Shown: positions 740 to 29,414 of the stretch, in pieces
How positions within the stretch are numbered: the stretch's first letter is position 1
Layout of the letters: each line of letters begins with the position of its first letter
Origin: Mobula hypostoma
Taxonomy: Eukaryota
Assembly (NCBI RefSeq): GCF_963921235.1
Contig: NC_086108.1
Coordinates: forward strand, 26,536,001-26,598,000
DNA length: 62,000 bases
Direction: 5' to 3'
Translations under genes and position numbers: made by a program
Notes under the pieces: generated by a model
Seen by the model: only the letters and a program-made list of their open reading frames with translations
Databases searched by the model: none
What the model was told of the DNA's origin: nothing

Positions 740-2278
740 GCCGAATAGTAAAGACCTGTGCTGATCAGCTTGCAGGAGCGAGCACTGATATCCTCAACTT
801 CTCGCTTTGGCAGTCTGAGGTACCCACCTGCTTCAAGCGGGCTTCAAATATACCAGTGCCTAAGAAGAAAATGGCAATCTGTCTCAGTAACTGGAGTCCA
901 GTAGCACTGACATCAGCTGTGATGAAGTGCTTTGGGAACATGATGATGAAACATATCAACTCCTGCCTGTGAAGTGACTTGGATCCACTCCAATTTGCCT
1001 ACTGGCATAACAGGTCCACAGCAGATGCCATTTCATTGGCTCTTCACTCAACACTGGAACCTCTGAACAGCAAAGGTGCCTACGTCAGGATGCTCTTCAT
1101 TGACTACAGCTCAGCATTCAACATTATCATTAGTCAAAACTAATAAATAAACTTCAAGACCTTGACGTCAATACCCCCGTGCAATTGGATCCTTGATTTC
1201 CTCATTTGCAAACCTCGGTCAGTTCTTATTGGCAAAAACATCTTCACAATCTCCATCAGTATAGGTGTACCATAAAGCTGTGTGTTTAGCCTCCAGCTCT
1301 ACTTACTTTATACTTATGACTGTGAGGCTAAGTACAGCTTCAATGCTATTTTTCAGTTTGCTGATGACGCCACTGTCATTGGCCTCATCAAAGGTGGTAA
1401 CGAATTAGCTGAAAACCTATCTGAGTGATGCCACAAGATCAACCTCTCACTTGATATCAGTAAGACCAAGGAGTTGATTATTGACTTCAGGAGGAGGAAA
1501 TCTGAGGGCCAGGAGCCAGTCCTCATCAGGGGATGAGCAACTTTAAGTTCCTTGGTGTTACCATTTCAGAGAATCTGTCTTGGGTCCATTATGAAGAAAG
1601 CATGGCAGTGTCTCTACATCCTTAGAAGTTTGTGAAGATTTGGCATGACATCTAAAACTTGTATAGATGTATGGTGGAGAGTATATTGACTGGTTGTATC
1701 AGGGCCTGGTATGGAAACACCAATGTCCTTGAATGGAAAATCCTACAAAAAGTAGTGAATACAATCCAGTCCATTATGGGTAAAACCCTCCCTACCATTG
1801 AACACATCTACATGGAGAACTGTCACAGGAAAGTAGTATCCATCATCAAGAACCCCCACCATCCAGGCTATGCTGTCTTGTTGCTGCTGCCATCAGGAAG
1901 AAGGTAGGGAGCTCAGGACCCACATCACCAGGTTCAGGAACAGTTATTAACCCTCAACCATCAGGCTCCTTGTACCAGAGTAGATAACATCACTCATCTT
2001 CACTCGCTCCATCACTGAACTGTCCCAACAGCCTATGGGCTCACTTTCAAGGACTCAATATTTATTGCTAATTTATTTGTTCTTTTGTATTTACGCAGTT
2101 TGTTGTCTTCTGCACATTAGTTATTTGTCCATCCTGTTGGATGTGGTCTTCCATTTATTCTACTCTGTTTCTTAGATTTACTGTGTATGCCCACAAGAGT
2201 ACAAATCTCAGGGTTATGTATGGCAACGTATCTGTATTTTGTCAATATATTTACTTTGAACATTGAACTTTGAACTTT
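740..2278 (+). mobile_element. Decayed Rex-Babar/L2-type LINE, RT domain and 3' end
   Basis: Broken RT motifs ([36 protein letters not shown]) and a (tttgaac)-like 3' tail at ~2255-2278. Confidence 0.8.
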
Positions 2279-3056
2279 TGTACTTTGTTTGACAAATGAA
2301 ACGTGATGAACTGTGTATTTTCCAAAGCATTGGGAGTACTTTTCAATCTCTGAATTTTGATAAATAGAATTGTGGCCTTTGTTGCTGGTTGCTGTGAAAT
2401 GCAGCTAAAGTGACTGATGGAAATTGATGATATCCTTATCAGCCTCACAGAACATAGCTGAACAAGCAGTGCAAGGGGAATTGCTTAAAGAACTGCTGTC
2501 TTTAGGGACTTGCCTGGATGGATTAAGTGCCATGTTTGAGAAGCTGCACCCTATGAAATAATGTGCACCATTAAAAATAACTTTGTATTTTGTTCTTTAA
2601 AAAGCAATAACATGGCTCTTAACTCTCAGCAGCCTAGAAGTTGCTGACTGAGTCAGATAATAGAATACTATATACCTCAAACAGGCACGATAAAGCAATG
2701 ATAATTTAATAAAATAAATGTGTTGTGGGGAATTTGTCAGGAGCTGTGAACACAACACTGGGTAAGGCAATGGGTTGGGAGTAAAATGGTGAAAGGTTGG
2801 GGGTGGATTGATGAGGTAGTGTATTCTACAGAAAGGTGAATGAGGAAGGTTGTTAGATGGAGGGCAGGTGGCGACTGGTTGTTCATTAAAGAGCTAGATA
2901 GGGAAGGGTGAGTTAGATGAGAGTAGTAGGGGCCTGTTTAAGAGATCAGTGGAGTTAAACAGTTGGAGGATGCGATTAATCTGTTAGATGGGGAAGAGTG
3001 TCCCATACCTTACATACTTAGTGTTATAGAAAGAGGCCATTTGGCCCATTGAGTCT

Positions 3057-3301
3057 TGTTGCATGTTGTAACTTCAAAACATTATACTAATTCAAAAAAA
3101 GACACGGGAGTCTGAATATATGGGTGTAACTTAGTCTTTACTTTAAATGAGGCATGCATATATCATGTGGTAGCATGATGACGTATGCAATTAATGTATT
3201 TTACATATAACTCATCATTAATTATTTAAACAAACAAGAATACTTAAACAATATATATGTATACAAGATTGCTCAAATATTCCTGAAATATTAAATACAC
3301 A
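3057..3301 (-). repeat. 3' LTR of the Gypsy element
   Basis: Has TG...CA ends, is adjacent to the PPT, and aligns by eye to 5630-5745 plus 6991-7107. Confidence 0.8.
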
Positions 3302-3624
3302 GCACTCTTCCTGCTTAGCTTTAAACTCCAACTCAATGGAGAATGCATCTCAACTATATATACAGTATGTTATATAATAGAACTACCATACTAATACATT
3401 CACAGAATAGTCGATTTTAAATTGTCCCATTCAGGCCTAAAGATTTAATCCTGTGGTGGATTTCTTACTCTTGTGGGATAACGTCTTTCATGACATGGGG
3501 AATCGCTCTGCTTGGCAGGTGAGAGTTGTTGCTGTGAAGCAATCTTAGGTTCTGGAACCTTCCCCACAGTGGTTGTAGGAGTTAACTGAGGCAGTAGGAA
3601 GGAGTTCTGACTGTGGTAGCCACC

Positions 3625-4173
3625 TTTCTTCTTCTGGTCTGTGCATCTTGATCTTGGGAAGGTACATTTAGTTTACTGGAGATATTCTCTTATTAATCCT
3701 TCTATCGCTCCCTTTATGTTCTGATCTCTTCTCTTGATTTCCTCACCCACAACATCATCTCATGAATCCTCTGTTTCCCTATCTCCATTGACTCCTTTAT
3801 TTTTCGCCATCCATTCATCCAGCTGGGCTTTGATCTTCACATCTACTTTTACAAGCAGCATTTTGTCTCCCAGTTGAAGTTCATGCAATGATTTTAATGC
3901 ATGGAGAATAGATTCTCGTTCTTTATACTCACAAAAGCCGAATGCTTGCAGCTTTCCTGAAGCTCCTTGAACTCTCTTCCAGCTTAGATCCAAGCCACAT
4001 TTTGCAAGTAACTGCCTGATTAACGGATCAGAAGCTATCTCAGATATGTTGCCTACAAAAACTGTTGTAGTCAGACCATTGCTTTCATTAGTTTCACACT
4101 TCCTCTGAGCAGCATGGTGTTTCTTTGGTCCAATATGCTTTCCAGCCAGAGGCATAGAGGCTGGCACCAACGC
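3625..4173 (-). pseudogene. RBM25: Partial processed copy (retrocopy) of RBM25, RRM region
   Basis: ORF 3760-4170 reads TTVFVGNISEIASDPLIRQLLAKCGLDLSWKRVQGASGKLQAFGFCEYKE...LLVKVDVKIKAQLDEW. After frameshifts it continues as EEIKRRDQNIKGAIEGLIREY/SSKLNVPSQ. This matches recalled RBM25, is uninterrupted by introns, and is disabled. Confidence 0.92.
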
Positions 4174-5745
4174 CTGCTTTCCCTCTGCTGGAGAACAGTT
4201 CAGGGTGGAGACAGTTATGCATCATCCAGTACCTTTCATTAAATCACTTTCATGTGGTTTCATTGCAGGGGATGTGGCATCCAAATTGTGAATGGATCTC
4301 CAATGAAGTATAGTTGTCTCAGCCAATCACACCCTCATAATGATGGTCCTTCTGTTTTTACCACAAGATCAATGTGACTTGTTGGTTGTTGGACTTCACA
4401 GCTACAAATGTCATTCCCATGGGAATTTTCTCCAGTATAAGTTCTTAATTGGATATCTGCAGGCTTCAGTTTAATACCTTTGAATTGCCATGAAAATTTA
4501 TTTTGTTGAATGACTTAGCCAGTGTCCAATTCAATTTTAATTCATTTGCCGTTCACTTCTGATGTAAGCCATATTACTGTCTATTATTCATTTTCACACT
4601 GTAAATCTCAAGGCTGCACAATTCTGTGGCACTCTTGTCATCAGATTTATAACAGCTCTTTTTGAAACTGCAACATGATTTTTTTATCTTTTTCTCTTCT
4701 CTGTGCAGGCCATTTATTTTTGATTACCTGACGTGCTCTTTGTGTCCTACTTTGTTGCATTTTCTGCAATTTTGCCTTTAATTCTGCATTTGTTTTGTAT
4801 ATGTGCACCTATGACAGAATGGTACCACAATGTGTTCAGAGAAGCAGGTTTCTGTTTAGATGCTACAGTTTTGTTCACACTCACTTTCATTCCCGACTGC
4901 AACTCAATTGTATCCCCGCCTGTGGTTTCCATTGAAACAGTGATTTCCACCTATTTTTAAATATAAGTTGTCTTCAGTTAGGAGTTGTTTTTAAATACAG
5001 TACCTTTTTTTAAGATTCCTGGAACTAAACAATCTCACAGTGTATCAATAAGCCCATTACCGAACTGACGATGCTCAATCTCTTCAATTCAGCCACATAT
5101 GCTGAAGCCGACTCCCCTTTCTTTTGTTTATGCAGGTGAAATCTAAAGCATTCTACAATCAACAATGGCTTTTGTTCTAAGTGTTCCTGCATCACTTTGA
5201 CAACAGTACCAAAGCTCAATTCTGATGGTTTGGTTGGAGAAGTCAAACTTCAAAGTAAACTGCACGCCTTTAAACCAAATGCACTAAACAAAATTGGCAC
5301 TGACTTTTCATTGGCTTCAAAATACTGTTCCAATAGTTCAGTATACATGAGCCAATTACCCATTGTGTAATGAAACTTGTCAATCTTTCACATATAAACA
5401 GCCATGTTGATTTTTTAAATGATTATTATCATCCACTCTTTAAAAACCCGTGAGTTTTTCCATTTTCTTACATTTTATTTTAAACACTCAAATCTTCTTT
5501 TCTGAAGAACACACTCGTTTCATAATTCGACCATTCCTCACTGCATTTTATTTCATTTCAAACATCTCGCTGTACTTTCAACAGCTCGGTAGCTGTTTCA
5601 GGTTCATTTTGAAACTGCCTCATCACCAATATTATGTTTGGTAACTTCAAAGCATTAAACTAATTCAAACAAAGTCATGGGAGTTCGAAAATATGGGTGT
5701 AACTTTGTATTTGGATTAAGGAAGTCATGCGCGTATCACGTAGAA

Positions 5746-6990
5746 CAGCAGTCCCCAACCACTGGGCCGTGGACTGGTACCGGGCCGCAAAGCATGCGCT
5801 ACCGGGCCGCGAGGAAACAATATGATTTGGCGATAGGAGTCAGCTGCACCTTTCCTCATTCCCTGTCACGCACTGTTGAGCCATTACGCATGCGAGGTCA
5901 TTACCCGCTCGTCATCCATGTCAGCGCGGGAAGAAGATCAACCCCTCGAGCTTGCAAATGACGGCGGGCTGAAAAGTATGTTTGACATAACATCTCTGCT
6001 GGCATTTCAGATCAAAGTCAAGGCTAAATATCCTGAGATAGCCACGAAAGCACTGAAAACATTGCTTCCATTTCCAACATTTTTCTACGAAGCGGAGTTT
6101 TCTGCAATGAATACAATGAAAACTAAATTGCGGAACAGACTGGACATAAGGAACCCCCTTCGAGTATCGTTGTCTCCCATCACCCCTCGATAGGGCCGTC
6201 TTGTTGCAGGAAAACAAGCCCAGGGCTCCCACTGATTTAGCGATATTCGTGTGTTCCAATAATTTTATATGTTCATACGGGGAAAATATGTGCTGTGTGT
6301 TTAATATCCAAATGTTACTTAAAATGTTATGATGCTATTGACTTATAAGTGACTTATATAACCATATAACAATTATAGCATGAAAACAGGCCATCTCTGC
6401 CCTTCTAGTCCATGCTGAATGCTACTCTCACCTAGTCCCACCGACCTGCACTCAGCCCATAACCCTCCATTCCTTTCCTGTCCATATACCTATCCAATTT
6501 TTCTTTAAATGATAATATCGAACCTGCCTCTGCCACTTCTACTGGAAGTTCGTTAAACACTTACTTCAGGCTCCCCTGTCCTCCCCTGATAATTGACTTA
6601 TCACTATATTCATGCAAGGAAAATATGTGCTGTGTGTTTAATATCAAATTCGTTAGATAAACCCTTTTAGAAATGAAATTGAGTGTATTAGCCACTTATC
6701 ATCTATATTCCGGTCGTGATTAACACCCCCCACCCCCCGAACAGAATCGACAAAAACGATTTGCAGAGAGGAAAAAAATCGGCACATACACGCATGCACA
6801 CTGGTGCCTGTGCAAGGCTCCATGGTCATTGTGGTCTTTCTCTGGGCAAACACAATGTATTTCACTGCTACTCTTGTCCTTTGGCAACCCTACCCGCCCC
6901 CCACCCCCCCCAACCCCCGGGTCAGCCGGTCCACAAGAATATTGTCAATATTAAACCGGTCCGCAGTGCAAAAAAGGTTGGGGACCCCTG
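5746..6990 (+). mobile_element. hAT-Charlie (Charlie3/MER1-like) internally deleted DNA transposon
   Basis: TIRs cagcagtccccaacc / ggttggggacccctg; exact 8-bp TSD acgtagaa (5738-5745, 6991-6998). Transposase C-terminal remnant ...YPEIATKALKTLLPFPT...RLDIRNPLRVSLSPITPR*GRLVAGKQAQGSH at ~5945-6234. Confidence 0.93.
6358..6555 (-). mobile_element. CR1 3'-end fragment inside the hAT element
   Basis: Same CR1 3' UTR pattern (aacaggcc...cccttc...gtcc) as other copies in the window. Confidence 0.6.
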
Positions 6991-7117
6991 ACGTAGAATG
7001 ATGACATGTACAATTAATGTGTTTTTACATATAACCTATAATTAAATATATCAATTATTTAAACAAACAATACTTAATCAAATAATATATAAACTGTATA
7101 TAAGATGTATATATATT

Positions 7118-7885
7118 GGTGTCGCAGCAACAACATTGCACCCAATGTCAGTAAGATCAAAGATCTGATTGTGGACTTCAGGAAGGGTAAGATGAGGGAA
7201 TATAAGCCAATCCTCTTAAATGGTTCAGAACTGGAAAGAATGAGCAATTTTAAATTCCTGATTAGATCTCTGAGAATCTAACCTCATCCCGACACATCAA
7301 TGCAGCTATAATGAAGGAAAGACAGTGGCTATGTTTCATTAGAAGTCTAATGAGATTTGGTTTGTCACCTAAAACACTTGAAAACCTCTACAGATGTACC
7401 ATGGAGAGAATTCTGACAGGCTACAGAAAGAAGCTACAGAATGTGTAAAACTAGTCAGCTCCATCTTGGGTACTAGCCTCCGTAGTATCCAAGACACCTT
7501 CAAGGAGCGGTGCCTCAGAAAGCCAGCTTCCATTATTAAGGACCCTCAATCACCCAGGGCATACCCTTTTCTCATTGTTACCATCAGGAAGGAGATACAG
7601 AAGCCTGAAGGCACACCCTCACTGATTCAGGAACAGCTTCTTCCCCTCCACAATCTGATTTCTGAATGGACATTGAAACCATGAACACTACCTCACTTTT
7701 TAAAAAATATTATTTCTGTTTTTGCACTATTTTTAATTGAATTGTTTAATATACATATATATACTTAATGCAATTGATATACTTATTTATTTTTTTCTCT
7801 ATTATCATGTATTGCATTGTACTGCTGCTGCTAAGTTAACAAATTTCATGACACATGCTGGTGATTTTAAACCTGATTCTGATTA
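7118..7885 (+). mobile_element. Rex-Babar/L2-type LINE 3' fragment
   Basis: LIVDFRK and KERCLRKPASIIKDP motifs; ctgattctga tail; similar to 44296-45027. Confidence 0.8.
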
Positions 7886-9257
7886 CTCAAATATTATTGA
7901 AATATTAAAAACACAACACATCCCATCTCTCCACTTATTTTCCTGTTACCTACTCACTCCCTCAGATTTTCTTTTCAGTCATCCACACCATTGATAATTA
8001 ATAAAGATCAATTAACTGAACAATCAGCTTGATTTTCAAAATGAGAGAGGAAACGAGGGCACGCAGGGAGGAGATGCGGTCTGCCCACTGGCCACACTGA
8101 GATACAGGAAGAAACTGAGTTCCTGGAGCTGTGAGATAGCAGTTCTTCCAGGTGCTCGATCATGCCTTCCTGCTGGCGGGGAGGCACGGATGGTTTTGGA
8201 CAGGCTGCTATGTAGAGAGATGGTTCAGGAGAGTTTGATACAAGATGATTGGTCAGGCTGCTGAATGGGGTGATAGGCAGGGACAGATGAAGACAGATGG
8301 AATGGGCTTGGGGAAAGGAAATGTGTGGGGCTGGATGACAGAAGGGGGTGCGTGTGGCTGGCCTCTCAGATGGAGCTGCTGGGATCAGGTTGTTTGATTG
8401 AAAGATCAATAGGCTAGGCTGATATACAGGGGCTGGATGTGGGGTGGCAGGGAAATGAAGGATGAGCTTGACAGGCTGTTAAAGATACAGGTGGGGCAAA
8501 GGCATTTGATAAAAGAGTTTGGAGAGCACGCTATTGGATGAAATTGGTCGGAGAGGTGGATGGAGCAGGCTTTCGGGTTGGTTAAGATGGATGAGCTGGA
8601 GAGAGAGGCGGAACAGCTGGTAGTCGGAGAGGTGGGAAGCTAATCAGGTCCAACATTAATGGGCATGCTCCAATGTTACATATTGTATCTTGGATTAATC
8701 ATATTGCAGTTACTGCTTTCAATATGTTACTTTATGAATGAAAAATATCTGATCAGCACGTAACTGAATCAATGTTAATTGCTGCCACAATCATTGTGAA
8801 ATATGTCCCATGGGTTAATAATTCACTTCATGAAATATTGTTTCCATAGGTTAATTTTTTTTTGTTACTCTCTTCATGTGGAGATAATATCCGTTGATTA
8901 TACTCAGCTGTCATGATCTAAATTGTCCAGTTCCTTTAGGATCTGAAGAAACACCAATTAGATCAGCTCATCCTTCTTCCCTATGTAAGCATGCTTAATT
9001 TACATAATAACCCTATGCCTCTGTCCCAGTAATTTGTCTTACCTTTCCTTTGTCCTTTCAATTGCTGAAATATATTTTTGCACTGTGCTGAACACAGACT
9101 GCTACATGATTTATAAAGTGCCAAAATCACCTCAATATTTCAGCTTCATATTGACCTTTTATTACACTGCACCATCTGCTTGTTGCCACTACTCTTGCAA
9201 AATCTTCAGTTCATTGGCATTCCTGATTTCCTTGCTTTATTCGTGCATATTATTCCC

Positions 9258-26559: not shown

Positions 26560-29414
26560 CATATTGTGTGCCTTGCAGCCATGTAGACTAAATGTGTGCT
26601 ATGCACGACAGGTTTGTCATCAAGGAATGCTGTGAAATGGCAACCCTCTGAAAGAAAACGAAAATGGTGGCCAGCTGGATAGAGACTCAGAAGCTTACGG
26701 TCAAATATGTTGTGCTTCCTTTCGGGGGGTTTGGAGCTGCCCACTGAAGAAGGCGAGTGGCTGCCACACACCTCTGACCAACTGTTCGTGCACAGCACCC
26801 ACAGCATAGTCTGAAGCATCAGTAGTAATGGTTACAGCTGCATTAGGGAGTAGGTGTGCCAAAAGGGGAGCATTGGAAAGAGTTTGTTTGACATTATCAA
26901 ATTCTCTAGTCCTGTCTGCTGACCAGTCAAGCATGTGATTAAGGGTATTGCCTTTAAGCACACTATACAGGGGAACCATGAGTTCAGCAGCTCACAGAGT
27001 GATGCAGTTATAGAAATTCACCATGCCTAATAACTCCTGTAGTTTTTTAGTAGTGTGGTGTGGTGGGAAATTGATAATAGCAGTTTCTTTTGATGGAAGA
27101 GGTTTTGCACCTTCTGCAGAGATGCGATGGCAAGAAAATCAATGCTTGACAACCCAGACTGGCATTCAGCAGGGTTAATAATCAACACTTATTGGCTTAA
27201 GCACTCAAAAAGTATGCGGAGATGAGATACGTGATTGGATTTGTATGCACTAGTAACAAGTATGTCATCCAGGTAAACAAAAAGAAATTTCAAATCTTTT
27301 AATACAATGTCCATCGGCCATTGGAAACTCTGTGCTGCATGTTTCAGCCCAAAAACAGCATGTGCAGAATCTCAAAGAGACCAAAAGTAGTTATCACAGC
27401 CATTTTGGGAATGTCCTCTGAGCACACAGGCACCTGATGGTAGCCCCTAACTAGATCAACTTTGGAAAAAAATAACTTTCTGGCTAAACGTGGTGAAAAG
27501 TCCTGGATGTGTGAGACTGGGTTATGATCAGGAGTGGTGGCCTTGTTAAAGCATCAGTAATTGCCACTAATGGATTTAGGGACCACATGGAGGGATGAAG
27601 CCCAGGGGCTGTTCGACTAGTGTACAATGCCGAGTCTTTCATGTTGGCAAACTTAGCTTTTGCAATTGCCAGCCTATGCATCCGGGTATGGACTGCTGGG
27701 CCAATTCTAGGAATGTGGTGCTCAACACCATGTTTTGTGACTGTGGTGGAGAACGTGAGCTCGGTGAGGTTTGGGAATTCACCCAGCAGCTGAGTAACTC
27801 CCATGCGGTGGTGCACGCACTTGACAGAGTCAATGTGGGGAACTTACTGGGGGAGCAGGGTAACAACCGAAAGTCTTGACATCCACAAGCAATTTTTAAG
27901 ATTGAGCACACAAGAAATCTACACCAATCAGAGGTCTAGCCACTTGAGCTGGGGCGAAGTCCCATGTGTAACACGGCTGACTGAAGCAGAGTGCCAATCC
28001 TTGTGTCCCGTAAGTCTGGATCCTGCTGCCATTGGCAGCCTCTAGTGAGGTTTCATCACTCCTTGCCTTCTCGTCAATTGGGGATGCTGGCATCACACTT
28101 GAGTACCTGTGTTGCACAGGAAACATCGCCCTGAAAAGGTGTCCGTATTGAGTAGTAGACAACTCTGGCAGCTGGAACCCATGGCGTTCTCAGACCTCCA
28201 ATGTCCCAAAGCACTGGCACTGTCAAAGCTGCAAAGGGGTCAGCACATCCTAGTCTTCGTAGCAAAGTGAGAGAGCTAAAAGCCTGGCGTCATCTGTTTC
28301 GCAGCTGCAAGCATCTGTAAGTTGGAGTCGAGAAAGTAGGAATGATGAACCACTGCCTTGCACAGCATAAACTGTCAGCAACTTTAGCAAGCTCCCTTCA
28401 TGTGTGCACTAGCGAGGGCTATACGAACTTGATCAGGCATGAAGAGTTCTTTAAAAATAAAACAAGGGTGGTGATTTCCCATTTGCTCTGATGGCTTACC
28501 ATCACTGAGTCTGGGCAAGGAGAGCAACTGATTGGCGTGCTCAGACTCTGATAGTCCTTAAGTCTGTGAAAGGTGAGTTTTCACAATTGGTGTTTATCAC
28601 GTTAACGCGGGTGCTCTGGTAGACACACCACACTCACAGTTATGGAGTTGCTGAGCAGCGTTACTACATAGAAATATTTAGTGTTGCCGGCAGAGATTTC
28701 TCACAGTGTGAAGTGGTTTTTGGCTTGAACAAACAAAGCAACAGCGTTTTGGTCCCAAAACTCTGACAGTTTCAAAACAATTGCACTGGCTATCATGTTC
28801 AATAACTCGGGAATTGTCCTAGAGCATTGACATCACCAGTGTCGGTTTTCATAAATAAAAGTGCAGAGGTGTTTTATGTTTAAGAAAAAATGGTAGTGGG
28901 CTGGCTGGTGGTGCAATGATATCAGCGCTGGACTCTGGAATGGAGGTTCCTGGGTTCGAACCCAGTTGGGTCCACTCCTGAGTACGCTTTCCATCAGTGC
29001 CAGGTTGAGTGTCGAGATCACAACTTGATCTCGTAAAATAAAAGGGAAAAATACTGCGAAATGTCTGTGTGAGGAGTGGTGCTCCACACAGTCTCTCTCT
29101 CTCTTGCTCTATGCCTTGTAAAGGCATGAAAAAAGACATAGTCCCGCCAACATCGCACACGCATGCACGCACACGCCAAAAAAAAAGAAAAAATGGTAGC
29201 AACTCACTTATTGAAAACCAGAAAATGAACACAAAAGTTGTTTTCGTAATTACCTCACCATGTCAGACCAGCCTGTTAGAGTGAACCCCAACCCAATGTT
29301 GGTGGATGGGAATTCTGTACTTTCCACTAATTACATTGCCCTACACCCTTCCCTCTGAACCACAGAGTCAGGCTCGGTGCAGAGCCTTGACCACTGTGTC
29401 TGTCCTCTGCTACA
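26560..29414 (-). mobile_element. Decayed Gypsy LTR retrotransposon (5' LTR, gag, PR, RT, RNase H; 3' truncated)
   Basis: gag KLSEFWDQN...TKYFYVV (~28650-28796), AANGSRIQTYG (PR), VYLDDI (~27262-27279) and TTDASDYAVGAV...WQPLAFFS (RNase H). PBS tggtga at ~28833-28838; putative LTR 28840-29414. Confidence 0.85.
28897..29184 (+). mobile_element. tRNA-derived SINE with poly(A) tail inserted in the Gypsy LTR
   Basis: A box tggtgcaatg, B box gggttcgaaccc, A tail and 15-bp TSD aagaaaaaatggtag (28882-28896, 29185-29199). Confidence 0.88.

Follow-up and report, generated by a model that had tools for sequence, protein, structure and literature searches.

Structure of the element

On the minus strand of a 62,000-nucleotide (nt) window of the Mobula hypostoma genome (NCBI RefSeq assembly GCF_963921235.1, contig NC_086108.1, forward-strand positions 26,536,001–26,598,000), positions 3057–7918 are occupied by a dead, decayed copy of a Gypsy long terminal repeat (LTR) element in which a piece of spliced RBM25 messenger RNA (mRNA) stands in place of the copying enzymes. 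Coordinates without a prefix are window positions throughout. Read on its own strand, the element runs LTR, primer-binding site (PBS), gag, protease, spliced RBM25, integrase tail, polypurine tract (PPT), LTR. A first-pass annotation, made from the letters of the window and their open reading frames, had proposed this order, and it is corroborated by tblastn matches to P0121 (an intact fish Gypsy polyprotein that served as the protein reference for domain mapping), by a Pfam RRM_1 match in the insert, and by the PBS and PPT visible in the sequence. Also as annotated, the element lacks reverse transcriptase (RT), RNase H, and the integrase core, P0121 giving no tblastn match to any of them within it. 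P0121 amino acids ~410–1250 are missing from the chimera and present in copies of its parent family, the host insert replacing part of the internal open reading frame.

The 5′ LTR starts with TG at 7918 and is divided into three pieces by two later insertions, one LINE-like (long interspersed nuclear element) and one hAT-type. The first piece (7881–7918) matches the start of the 3′ LTR in 31 of 35 aligned columns, the second (6991–7106) matches the 3′ LTR in 86 of 100 ungapped columns, and the third (5630–5745), which ends the 5′ LTR, in 80 of 101 columns; taken together, 197 of 236 ungapped columns agree (~83%), as in other copies. The first-pass annotation had thus placed one limit of the element correctly, at 3057, and had stopped at 7107 on the other side, short of the outermost LTR piece. 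A decayed, putative PBS that begins with TGG (5618–5628) has its counterpart at the matching position in other copies. It is followed by a gag remnant with stops and frameshifts (4750–5405; P0121 amino acids 1–225, E 8e-42) and by a remnant of the protease and the protease–RT linker (4222–4574), of which 4574–4311 matches P0121 amino acids 287–380 (E 1e-14) and which is collinear with parent copies up to ~4219. Behind the RBM25 piece (3625–4221) lies a parent-derived integrase C-terminal tail (3445–3624), collinear with parent copies L084, L091, and L093; its own protein match is weak (3591–3454 to P0121 amino acids 1256–1307, E 0.043). The PPT (3305–3316) is likewise present in other copies. 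The 3′ LTR (3057–3304), whose decayed terminus falls at 3057 or 3065, was delimited by LTR comparison and by contigs of two further organisms, C and D, that enter it.

The RBM25 cargo and its donor gene

The insert between protease and integrase tail holds an RNA-recognition motif (RRM; Pfam RRM_1, E 3.7e-8), and the named proteins among 120 listed homologues are vertebrate RBM25 (59–78% identity). The host RBM25 gene lies at G000:C1, ~99.79–99.84 Mb, and was located with a C-terminal RBM25 protein query; a Pfam PWI search for it had returned two other genes, which we take to be SRRM1-like and PRPF3-like. Using our own exon numbering, the window insert consists, in the element's sense, of the end of exon 3, a 48-nt exon 3b, exons 4–6, and most of exon 7, with the whole RRM included. 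It aligns to these host exons at 82–90% identity per exon, and the host introns between them are 1.7–5.8 kb long with GT–AG ends. Five host exon junctions are crossed (4213, 4174, 4003, 3945, and 3784), so that the alignment to the gene which the first-pass annotation had recommended as a check bears out a spliced origin.

That annotation had recognised the RBM25 piece and its end at 3625 and had let it begin at 4173, for a length of ~550 bp, thereby leaving out the exon 3 end and the 48-nt exon. The RBM25 sequence begins at 4221 with the last 10 nt of exon 3 and continues into the 48-nt exon, which is found at G000:C1:99832586–99832633 on the minus strand, is in frame, and has AG/GT ends. A 5′ junction formed by splicing into exon 4 was rejected once these upstream parts had been identified. 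The 48-nt exon is present in the captured isoform and missing from the two fish proteins compared, P0003 and P0031; the copies conserve an old RBM25 isoform that contains it.

The sense orientation of the piece, and the want of a poly(A) tail or target-site duplication (TSD) around it, are as first annotated: neither was found around the insert. The window cargo is broken by a stop at 3760–3762 and by frame breaks near 4219 and 3683, and its final ~15 nt look like the beginning of exon 9. Longer copies elsewhere extend into exons 8 and 9 and the start of exon 10. The founder's cargo was likely ~1.07 kb long, about twice the length of the window insert, reaching from the last part of exon 3 into the first part of exon 10, and was shortened by later deletions.

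The parent family and the proposed switch points

In copies of the parent family, protease is followed by RT, RNase H, and integrase, and a full pol is thus present in the genome. The order protease–RT–RNase H–integrase is given by collinear tblastn matches to P0121 in loci L091, L157, L165, and L173; the parent also has Pfam RVT_1 and rve matches, and the proteins most similar to it bear the name K02A2.6-like. Of 26 parent-type loci, 22 showed RT, 17 RNase H, and 14 the integrase core; for 79 chimeric loci the corresponding counts are 1, 0, and 0. Single parent copies (L084 and L091) align collinearly with both flanks of the RBM25 insert, only 6 of 1,089 gag–protease columns separate the chimeric from the parent set, and the two sets are equally old (divergence 0.139 and 0.133). 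In the 24 parent-type loci compared, no further host-derived cargo in common was apparent.

Short stretches common to both partners lie at the two switches, as the first-pass annotation had anticipated. At the 5′ switch, directly behind the protease, the parent pol has 7 nt in common with the last part of RBM25 exon 3, read in the same codon frame in both; the window retains a decayed form of this stretch at 4216–4221, and in natural copies the reading frame stays open across the join of protease tail and RBM25. The in-frame 5′ fusion and the greater length of the founder's cargo go beyond the first-pass annotation. At the 3′ switch, 9 nt are common to exon 10 and the integrase tail, out of frame. 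For randomly chosen switch points, the chance of a shared stretch of at least 7 nt is 0.0007, and that of at least 9 nt is below 0.0001.

Size, structure, and age of the family

Searching with the insert DNA yielded 2,879 candidates, 40 of which were scored. The protease side is joined to the RBM25 insert in all 29 other loci fetched, and the tail or LTR follows in 27 of them. A 21-mer across the chimeric 5′ junction has 622 matches when up to one mismatch is allowed (reversed control: 0); the corresponding parent-type 21-mer has 1,346. RBM25 was present in 40 of 40 loci picked by the junction and in 0 of 20 picked by the parent pattern, from 100 listed for each, which answers the question of breakpoint recurrence raised in the first-pass annotation. 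In 39 of 40 pattern-picked copies, alignment to the mRNA sets in at the end of exon 3 or at the 48-nt exon; the remaining one is deleted there. Because only 14 of 48 independently found copies (a sample biased toward window-like copies) pass the 21-mer filter, correction for decay gives ~2,100 copies (95% range 1,400–3,700). The hybrid has thus reached at least 600, and likely about 2,000, places.

These dispersed copies of the same structure, with target duplications of their own, constitute a non-autonomous LTR family. Among seven chimeric copies with both ends, the 5-bp TSD is perfect in one, matches at four of five positions in two and at three of five in two more, and is missing in two; three of the seven therefore have four or five matching positions. 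Length could be classed for 60 of 87 copies (a set from which L030 was excluded as a near-duplicate): 4 keep exon 8, 22 are intermediate, and 34, including the window copy, are short. L011, counted as intermediate, has extra parent sequence instead, its RBM25 piece being followed by a longer parent integrase stretch than in other copies, and seems likely to have undergone a second recombination with parent RNA. L019 and L030, on G000:C96, have identical 5′ junction stretches 1.2 Mb apart and are perhaps segmental duplicates; L019 also carries a second, partial RBM25 piece in tandem.

Divergence between paired LTRs (K) is 0.17–0.28 in six chimeric pairs and 0.16 and 0.21 in two parent-type pairs, and the least-diverged pair among 84 copies is 11% apart. 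Across 2600–3187, contigs of organisms C and D run from unique flank into the window copy's 3′ LTR at ~93–94% identity, which places the window insertion before the split of these organisms from that of the window. Linked amino-acid-changing variants (25 of 39 versus 1 of 37), as compared among copies, evidently reflect repeated rounds of copying. One run presumed to be RNA gave short matching contigs at low depth and counts neither for nor against expression.

Proposed origin and alternative explanations

We consider it highly probable that the chimera arose by template switching during reverse transcription, the explanation that the first-pass annotation had offered and that the spliced cargo, the microhomologies, and the recurring 5′ breakpoint support. 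An RBM25 mRNA would have been packaged together with element RNA; RT would have jumped from the element RNA to the mRNA at the 7-nt stretch and returned to the element RNA at the 9-nt stretch. The product, probably a single founder with ~1.07 kb of cargo that was made once, would have retained its LTRs, PBS, and PPT and would likely then have been multiplied in trans with enzymes lent by the intact parent family. Mobilisation by such an autonomous partner is suggested by the LTR, gag–protease, and age that the chimera has in common with the full-pol parent. Later deletions at A/G-rich repeats would then have shortened the cargo.

Several observations weigh against this account. The window copy is without a recognisable element TSD and the end of its 3′ LTR is decayed, so that, for this copy, descent of both LTRs from one insertion is not provable; the first-pass claim that both flanks belong to one LTR element is supported here by collinearity with L084 and L091 and by LTRs ~83% identical, and lacks the TSD. 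Of 14 decayed parent copies, only 4 have the 9-nt stretch without a mismatch. Only the longer copies show the 3′ switch in full, deletion having removed it from the shortest class; conceivably, this class instead arose by a second switch back to parent RNA, L011 having such a differing 3′ junction. Point variants do not follow the deletion classes cleanly, which misfits a simple single line of descent and calls for recombination or recurrent deletion. Finally, the test of selection on the replicating lineage described below has low power (~five informative changes).

Other routes to the same structure seem far less probable. In a two-step capture of the kind known from retroviral oncogenes, an element in or near RBM25 would have given a spliced read-through transcript, and only the 3′ junction would be a template switch. 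At first glance the start of the insert coincides exactly with the boundary of exon 4, and its true start is only 10 nt ahead of a splice donor, as this route would suggest; the true 5′ junction, however, lies within exon 3 at the 7-nt shared stretch and has no splice acceptor, and both LTRs of the family in the 160 kb host region are on the opposite strand, upstream of exon 2. We regard this route as very unlikely, and its variant, a DNA-level deletion at the 7-nt microhomology followed by splicing, as conceivable. A LINE-made RBM25 retrocopy that inserted into a Gypsy element and spread by segmental duplication can be dismissed almost entirely. LINE-like repeats are abundant in the region and the junction stretches of L019 and L030 are identical, yet the insert has no poly(A) tail or TSD and both of its ends lie inside coding sequence. 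Pol is replaced rather than interrupted, whereas an insertion would leave its target in place, and the copies have differing flanks and TSDs of their own, with the closest pair 11% apart; pol replacement and independent flanks refute the retrocopy explanation.

A further alternative accepts capture by template switching and differs in making the cargo helpful: a Gag–protease–RRM polyprotein would aid packaging, splicing, or export of the element RNA or interfere with host control. It would be in keeping with the in-frame 5′ fusion and the natural copies that are open across it, with retention of the RRM-bearing 600 nt while the downstream part was deleted, with the want of any non-CpG amino-acid variant at a frequency of at least 20% within the RRM core, and with an unrelated Gypsy family whose Sds3-family cargo sits at almost the same position and, at 12 of 15 loci, in the protease frame. 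An in-frame fusion nevertheless has a one-in-three chance each time, and the deleted part is an A/G-rich repeat that is prone to loss anyway. An RRM free of stops and deletions is kept by only 14 of 77 copies. The fixed non-CpG differences between host and copies (unpolarised) comprise 19 synonymous and 0 nonsynonymous changes, and 14 synonymous ones would be expected if the host gene had drifted neutrally for as long as the copies are old (P 0.13), so that no selection on the element's side is needed to account for them. Subfamily variants are few; most of them alter an amino acid ahead of the RRM, and none falls in its core, in numbers too small to matter. We therefore think a helpful cargo improbable.

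Template switching followed by passive carriage of the cargo is the account that we prefer. Among copies, nonsynonymous changes, synonymous changes, and those that create a stop occur at equal frequency (transitions 0.057, 0.051, and 0.060, respectively), and the copies, judged by these substitution patterns, decay neutrally after insertion. Neither this comparison nor that of fixed host–copy differences gave any sign of selection on the RBM25 cargo, which is most likely a passenger as far as sequence comparison can tell. An open frame under purifying selection, expected of a functional retrogene or a domesticated fusion, was not found, the window copy having a stop and frame breaks. In gag–protease, a mild synonymous excess is seen among common variants in both the chimeric and the parent sets, in counts that still include cross-codon CpG sites.

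A second Gypsy family with host-derived cargo

The Pfam Sds3 profile gave 119 matches among 150 scored places in genome G000. All 15 Sds3 loci fetched (L175–L189) are preceded by the gag–protease of a different Gypsy family, which ends at P0121 amino acids 380–412, and the cargo, which we presume to derive from SUDS3, occupies nearly the polyprotein position of the RBM25 fusion. Copies of this family are much younger (4.8% apart among 10). Descent from the parent of the RBM25 chimera was considered and rejected, 0 of 15 loci matching that parent by DNA or LTR.

The two fusions would then be independent, both in frame and both directly behind the protease, and are suggestive; they are only two cases. 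Even if the cargo plays no part, selection for short genomes with an intact gag–protease could account for this position. It is possible, if rather unlikely, that Gypsy elements here repeatedly became vectors of the form Gag–protease–host protein, whose protease-freed cargo (the RBM25 RRM or an Sds3-family corepressor) aided them against host control of RNA or chromatin, so that the two families rose to hundreds or thousands of copies. If so, cargo-assisted spread would amount to oncogene-style transduction as a transposon strategy, and the high retrocopy counts of cartilaginous fish would partly reflect such vector families. Should the in-frame position behind the protease prove general across capture families, help of the cargo in element spread would become testable.

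Relation to known gene captures

Acutely transforming retroviruses have helper-dependent genomes in which host coding sequence is fused in frame behind gag-side sequence (Gag-onc). The RBM25 family is like them in its in-frame fusion and differs in having no env and no evidence of a selected cargo.

The mechanism that we propose is published: the passages of Tan et al. (2016; PMC5131818) on which we draw describe chimeras of animals made by LTR-mediated retroposition, with shared stretches at the switch points of median length 6 bp. The RBM25 chimera resembles these in that a partial mRNA replaces part of the internal open reading frame with short shared stretches at both switches, in that the insert is without poly(A) or TSD, and in that both LTRs are retained and a non-autonomous element is possible. 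The two differ in scale and later history. According to the same passages, secondary spread amounted to 18 insertion sites for nine fly retrocopies, and vertebrate cases to a handful per species (PMC5131818), whereas the RBM25 chimera has at least 622 and likely ~2,000 copies, about one per two parent-type copies, with nested later deletions.

Two further systems are comparable as far as the cited passages describe them. Maize Bs1 (PMC13317346; named also in PMC5131818) is likewise an LTR element with host gene segments, but it is from a plant, carries segments of three host genes, and is described as a new chimeric gene, whereas the RBM25 family carries one gene and all of its examined copies are broken. 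The capture of FAM8A1 by HERV-K similarly joins a vertebrate LTR element to a host mRNA with microsimilarity at the fusion points; it differs in being retroviral rather than Gypsy and a single case that gave an untranscribed pseudogene (PMC5131818).

A survey of retrocopies in 244 genomes (bioRxiv 10.64898/2026.06.26.734816) lists, in the text consulted, MIPOL1, SUDS3, SDF2L1, SLU7, and ZNF276 as the top parents in cartilaginous fish and ties retrocopies to non-LTR elements; no RBM term occurs in its main text. RBM25 and SUDS3 are unmentioned in the main text of a ray genome preprint. We found no paper on an RBM25–Gypsy family in a search that lay outside Repbase, Dfam, subscription journals, and bioRxiv supplements, where the family may be listed.

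LTR-mediated capture is a known kind of accident, occurring here on an unusually large scale, and it is the scale that differs. One captured mRNA piece was amplified ~2,000-fold, in a clean vertebrate case of LTR gene capture, fully resolved as to its donor exons, its parent, and both switch points. Families of this kind can swell the counts of retrocopies and mislead gene annotation.

Later insertions and neighbouring sequence

The outer of the two sequences that interrupt the 5′ LTR is a LINE-like 3′ fragment on the plus strand (7110–7884, limits approximate), on both sides of which the LTR continues. We presume it to be LINE-derived from the ends of its open reading frame; it is a high-copy repeat with numerous matches at unrelated loci and in host introns. 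The inner one (5746–6990) is a DNA transposon bounded by terminal inverted repeats; its target duplication is exact and 8 bp long, a length from which we take it to be of hAT type. It apparently carries another small insertion near 6356–6564, and an 87–97% copy of it lies inside an RBM25 intron (G000:C1:99806022–99807123). Elsewhere in the window, a different Gypsy element has left remnants of RT and RNase H on the minus strand at 26704–27610 (25–33% identity to P0121).

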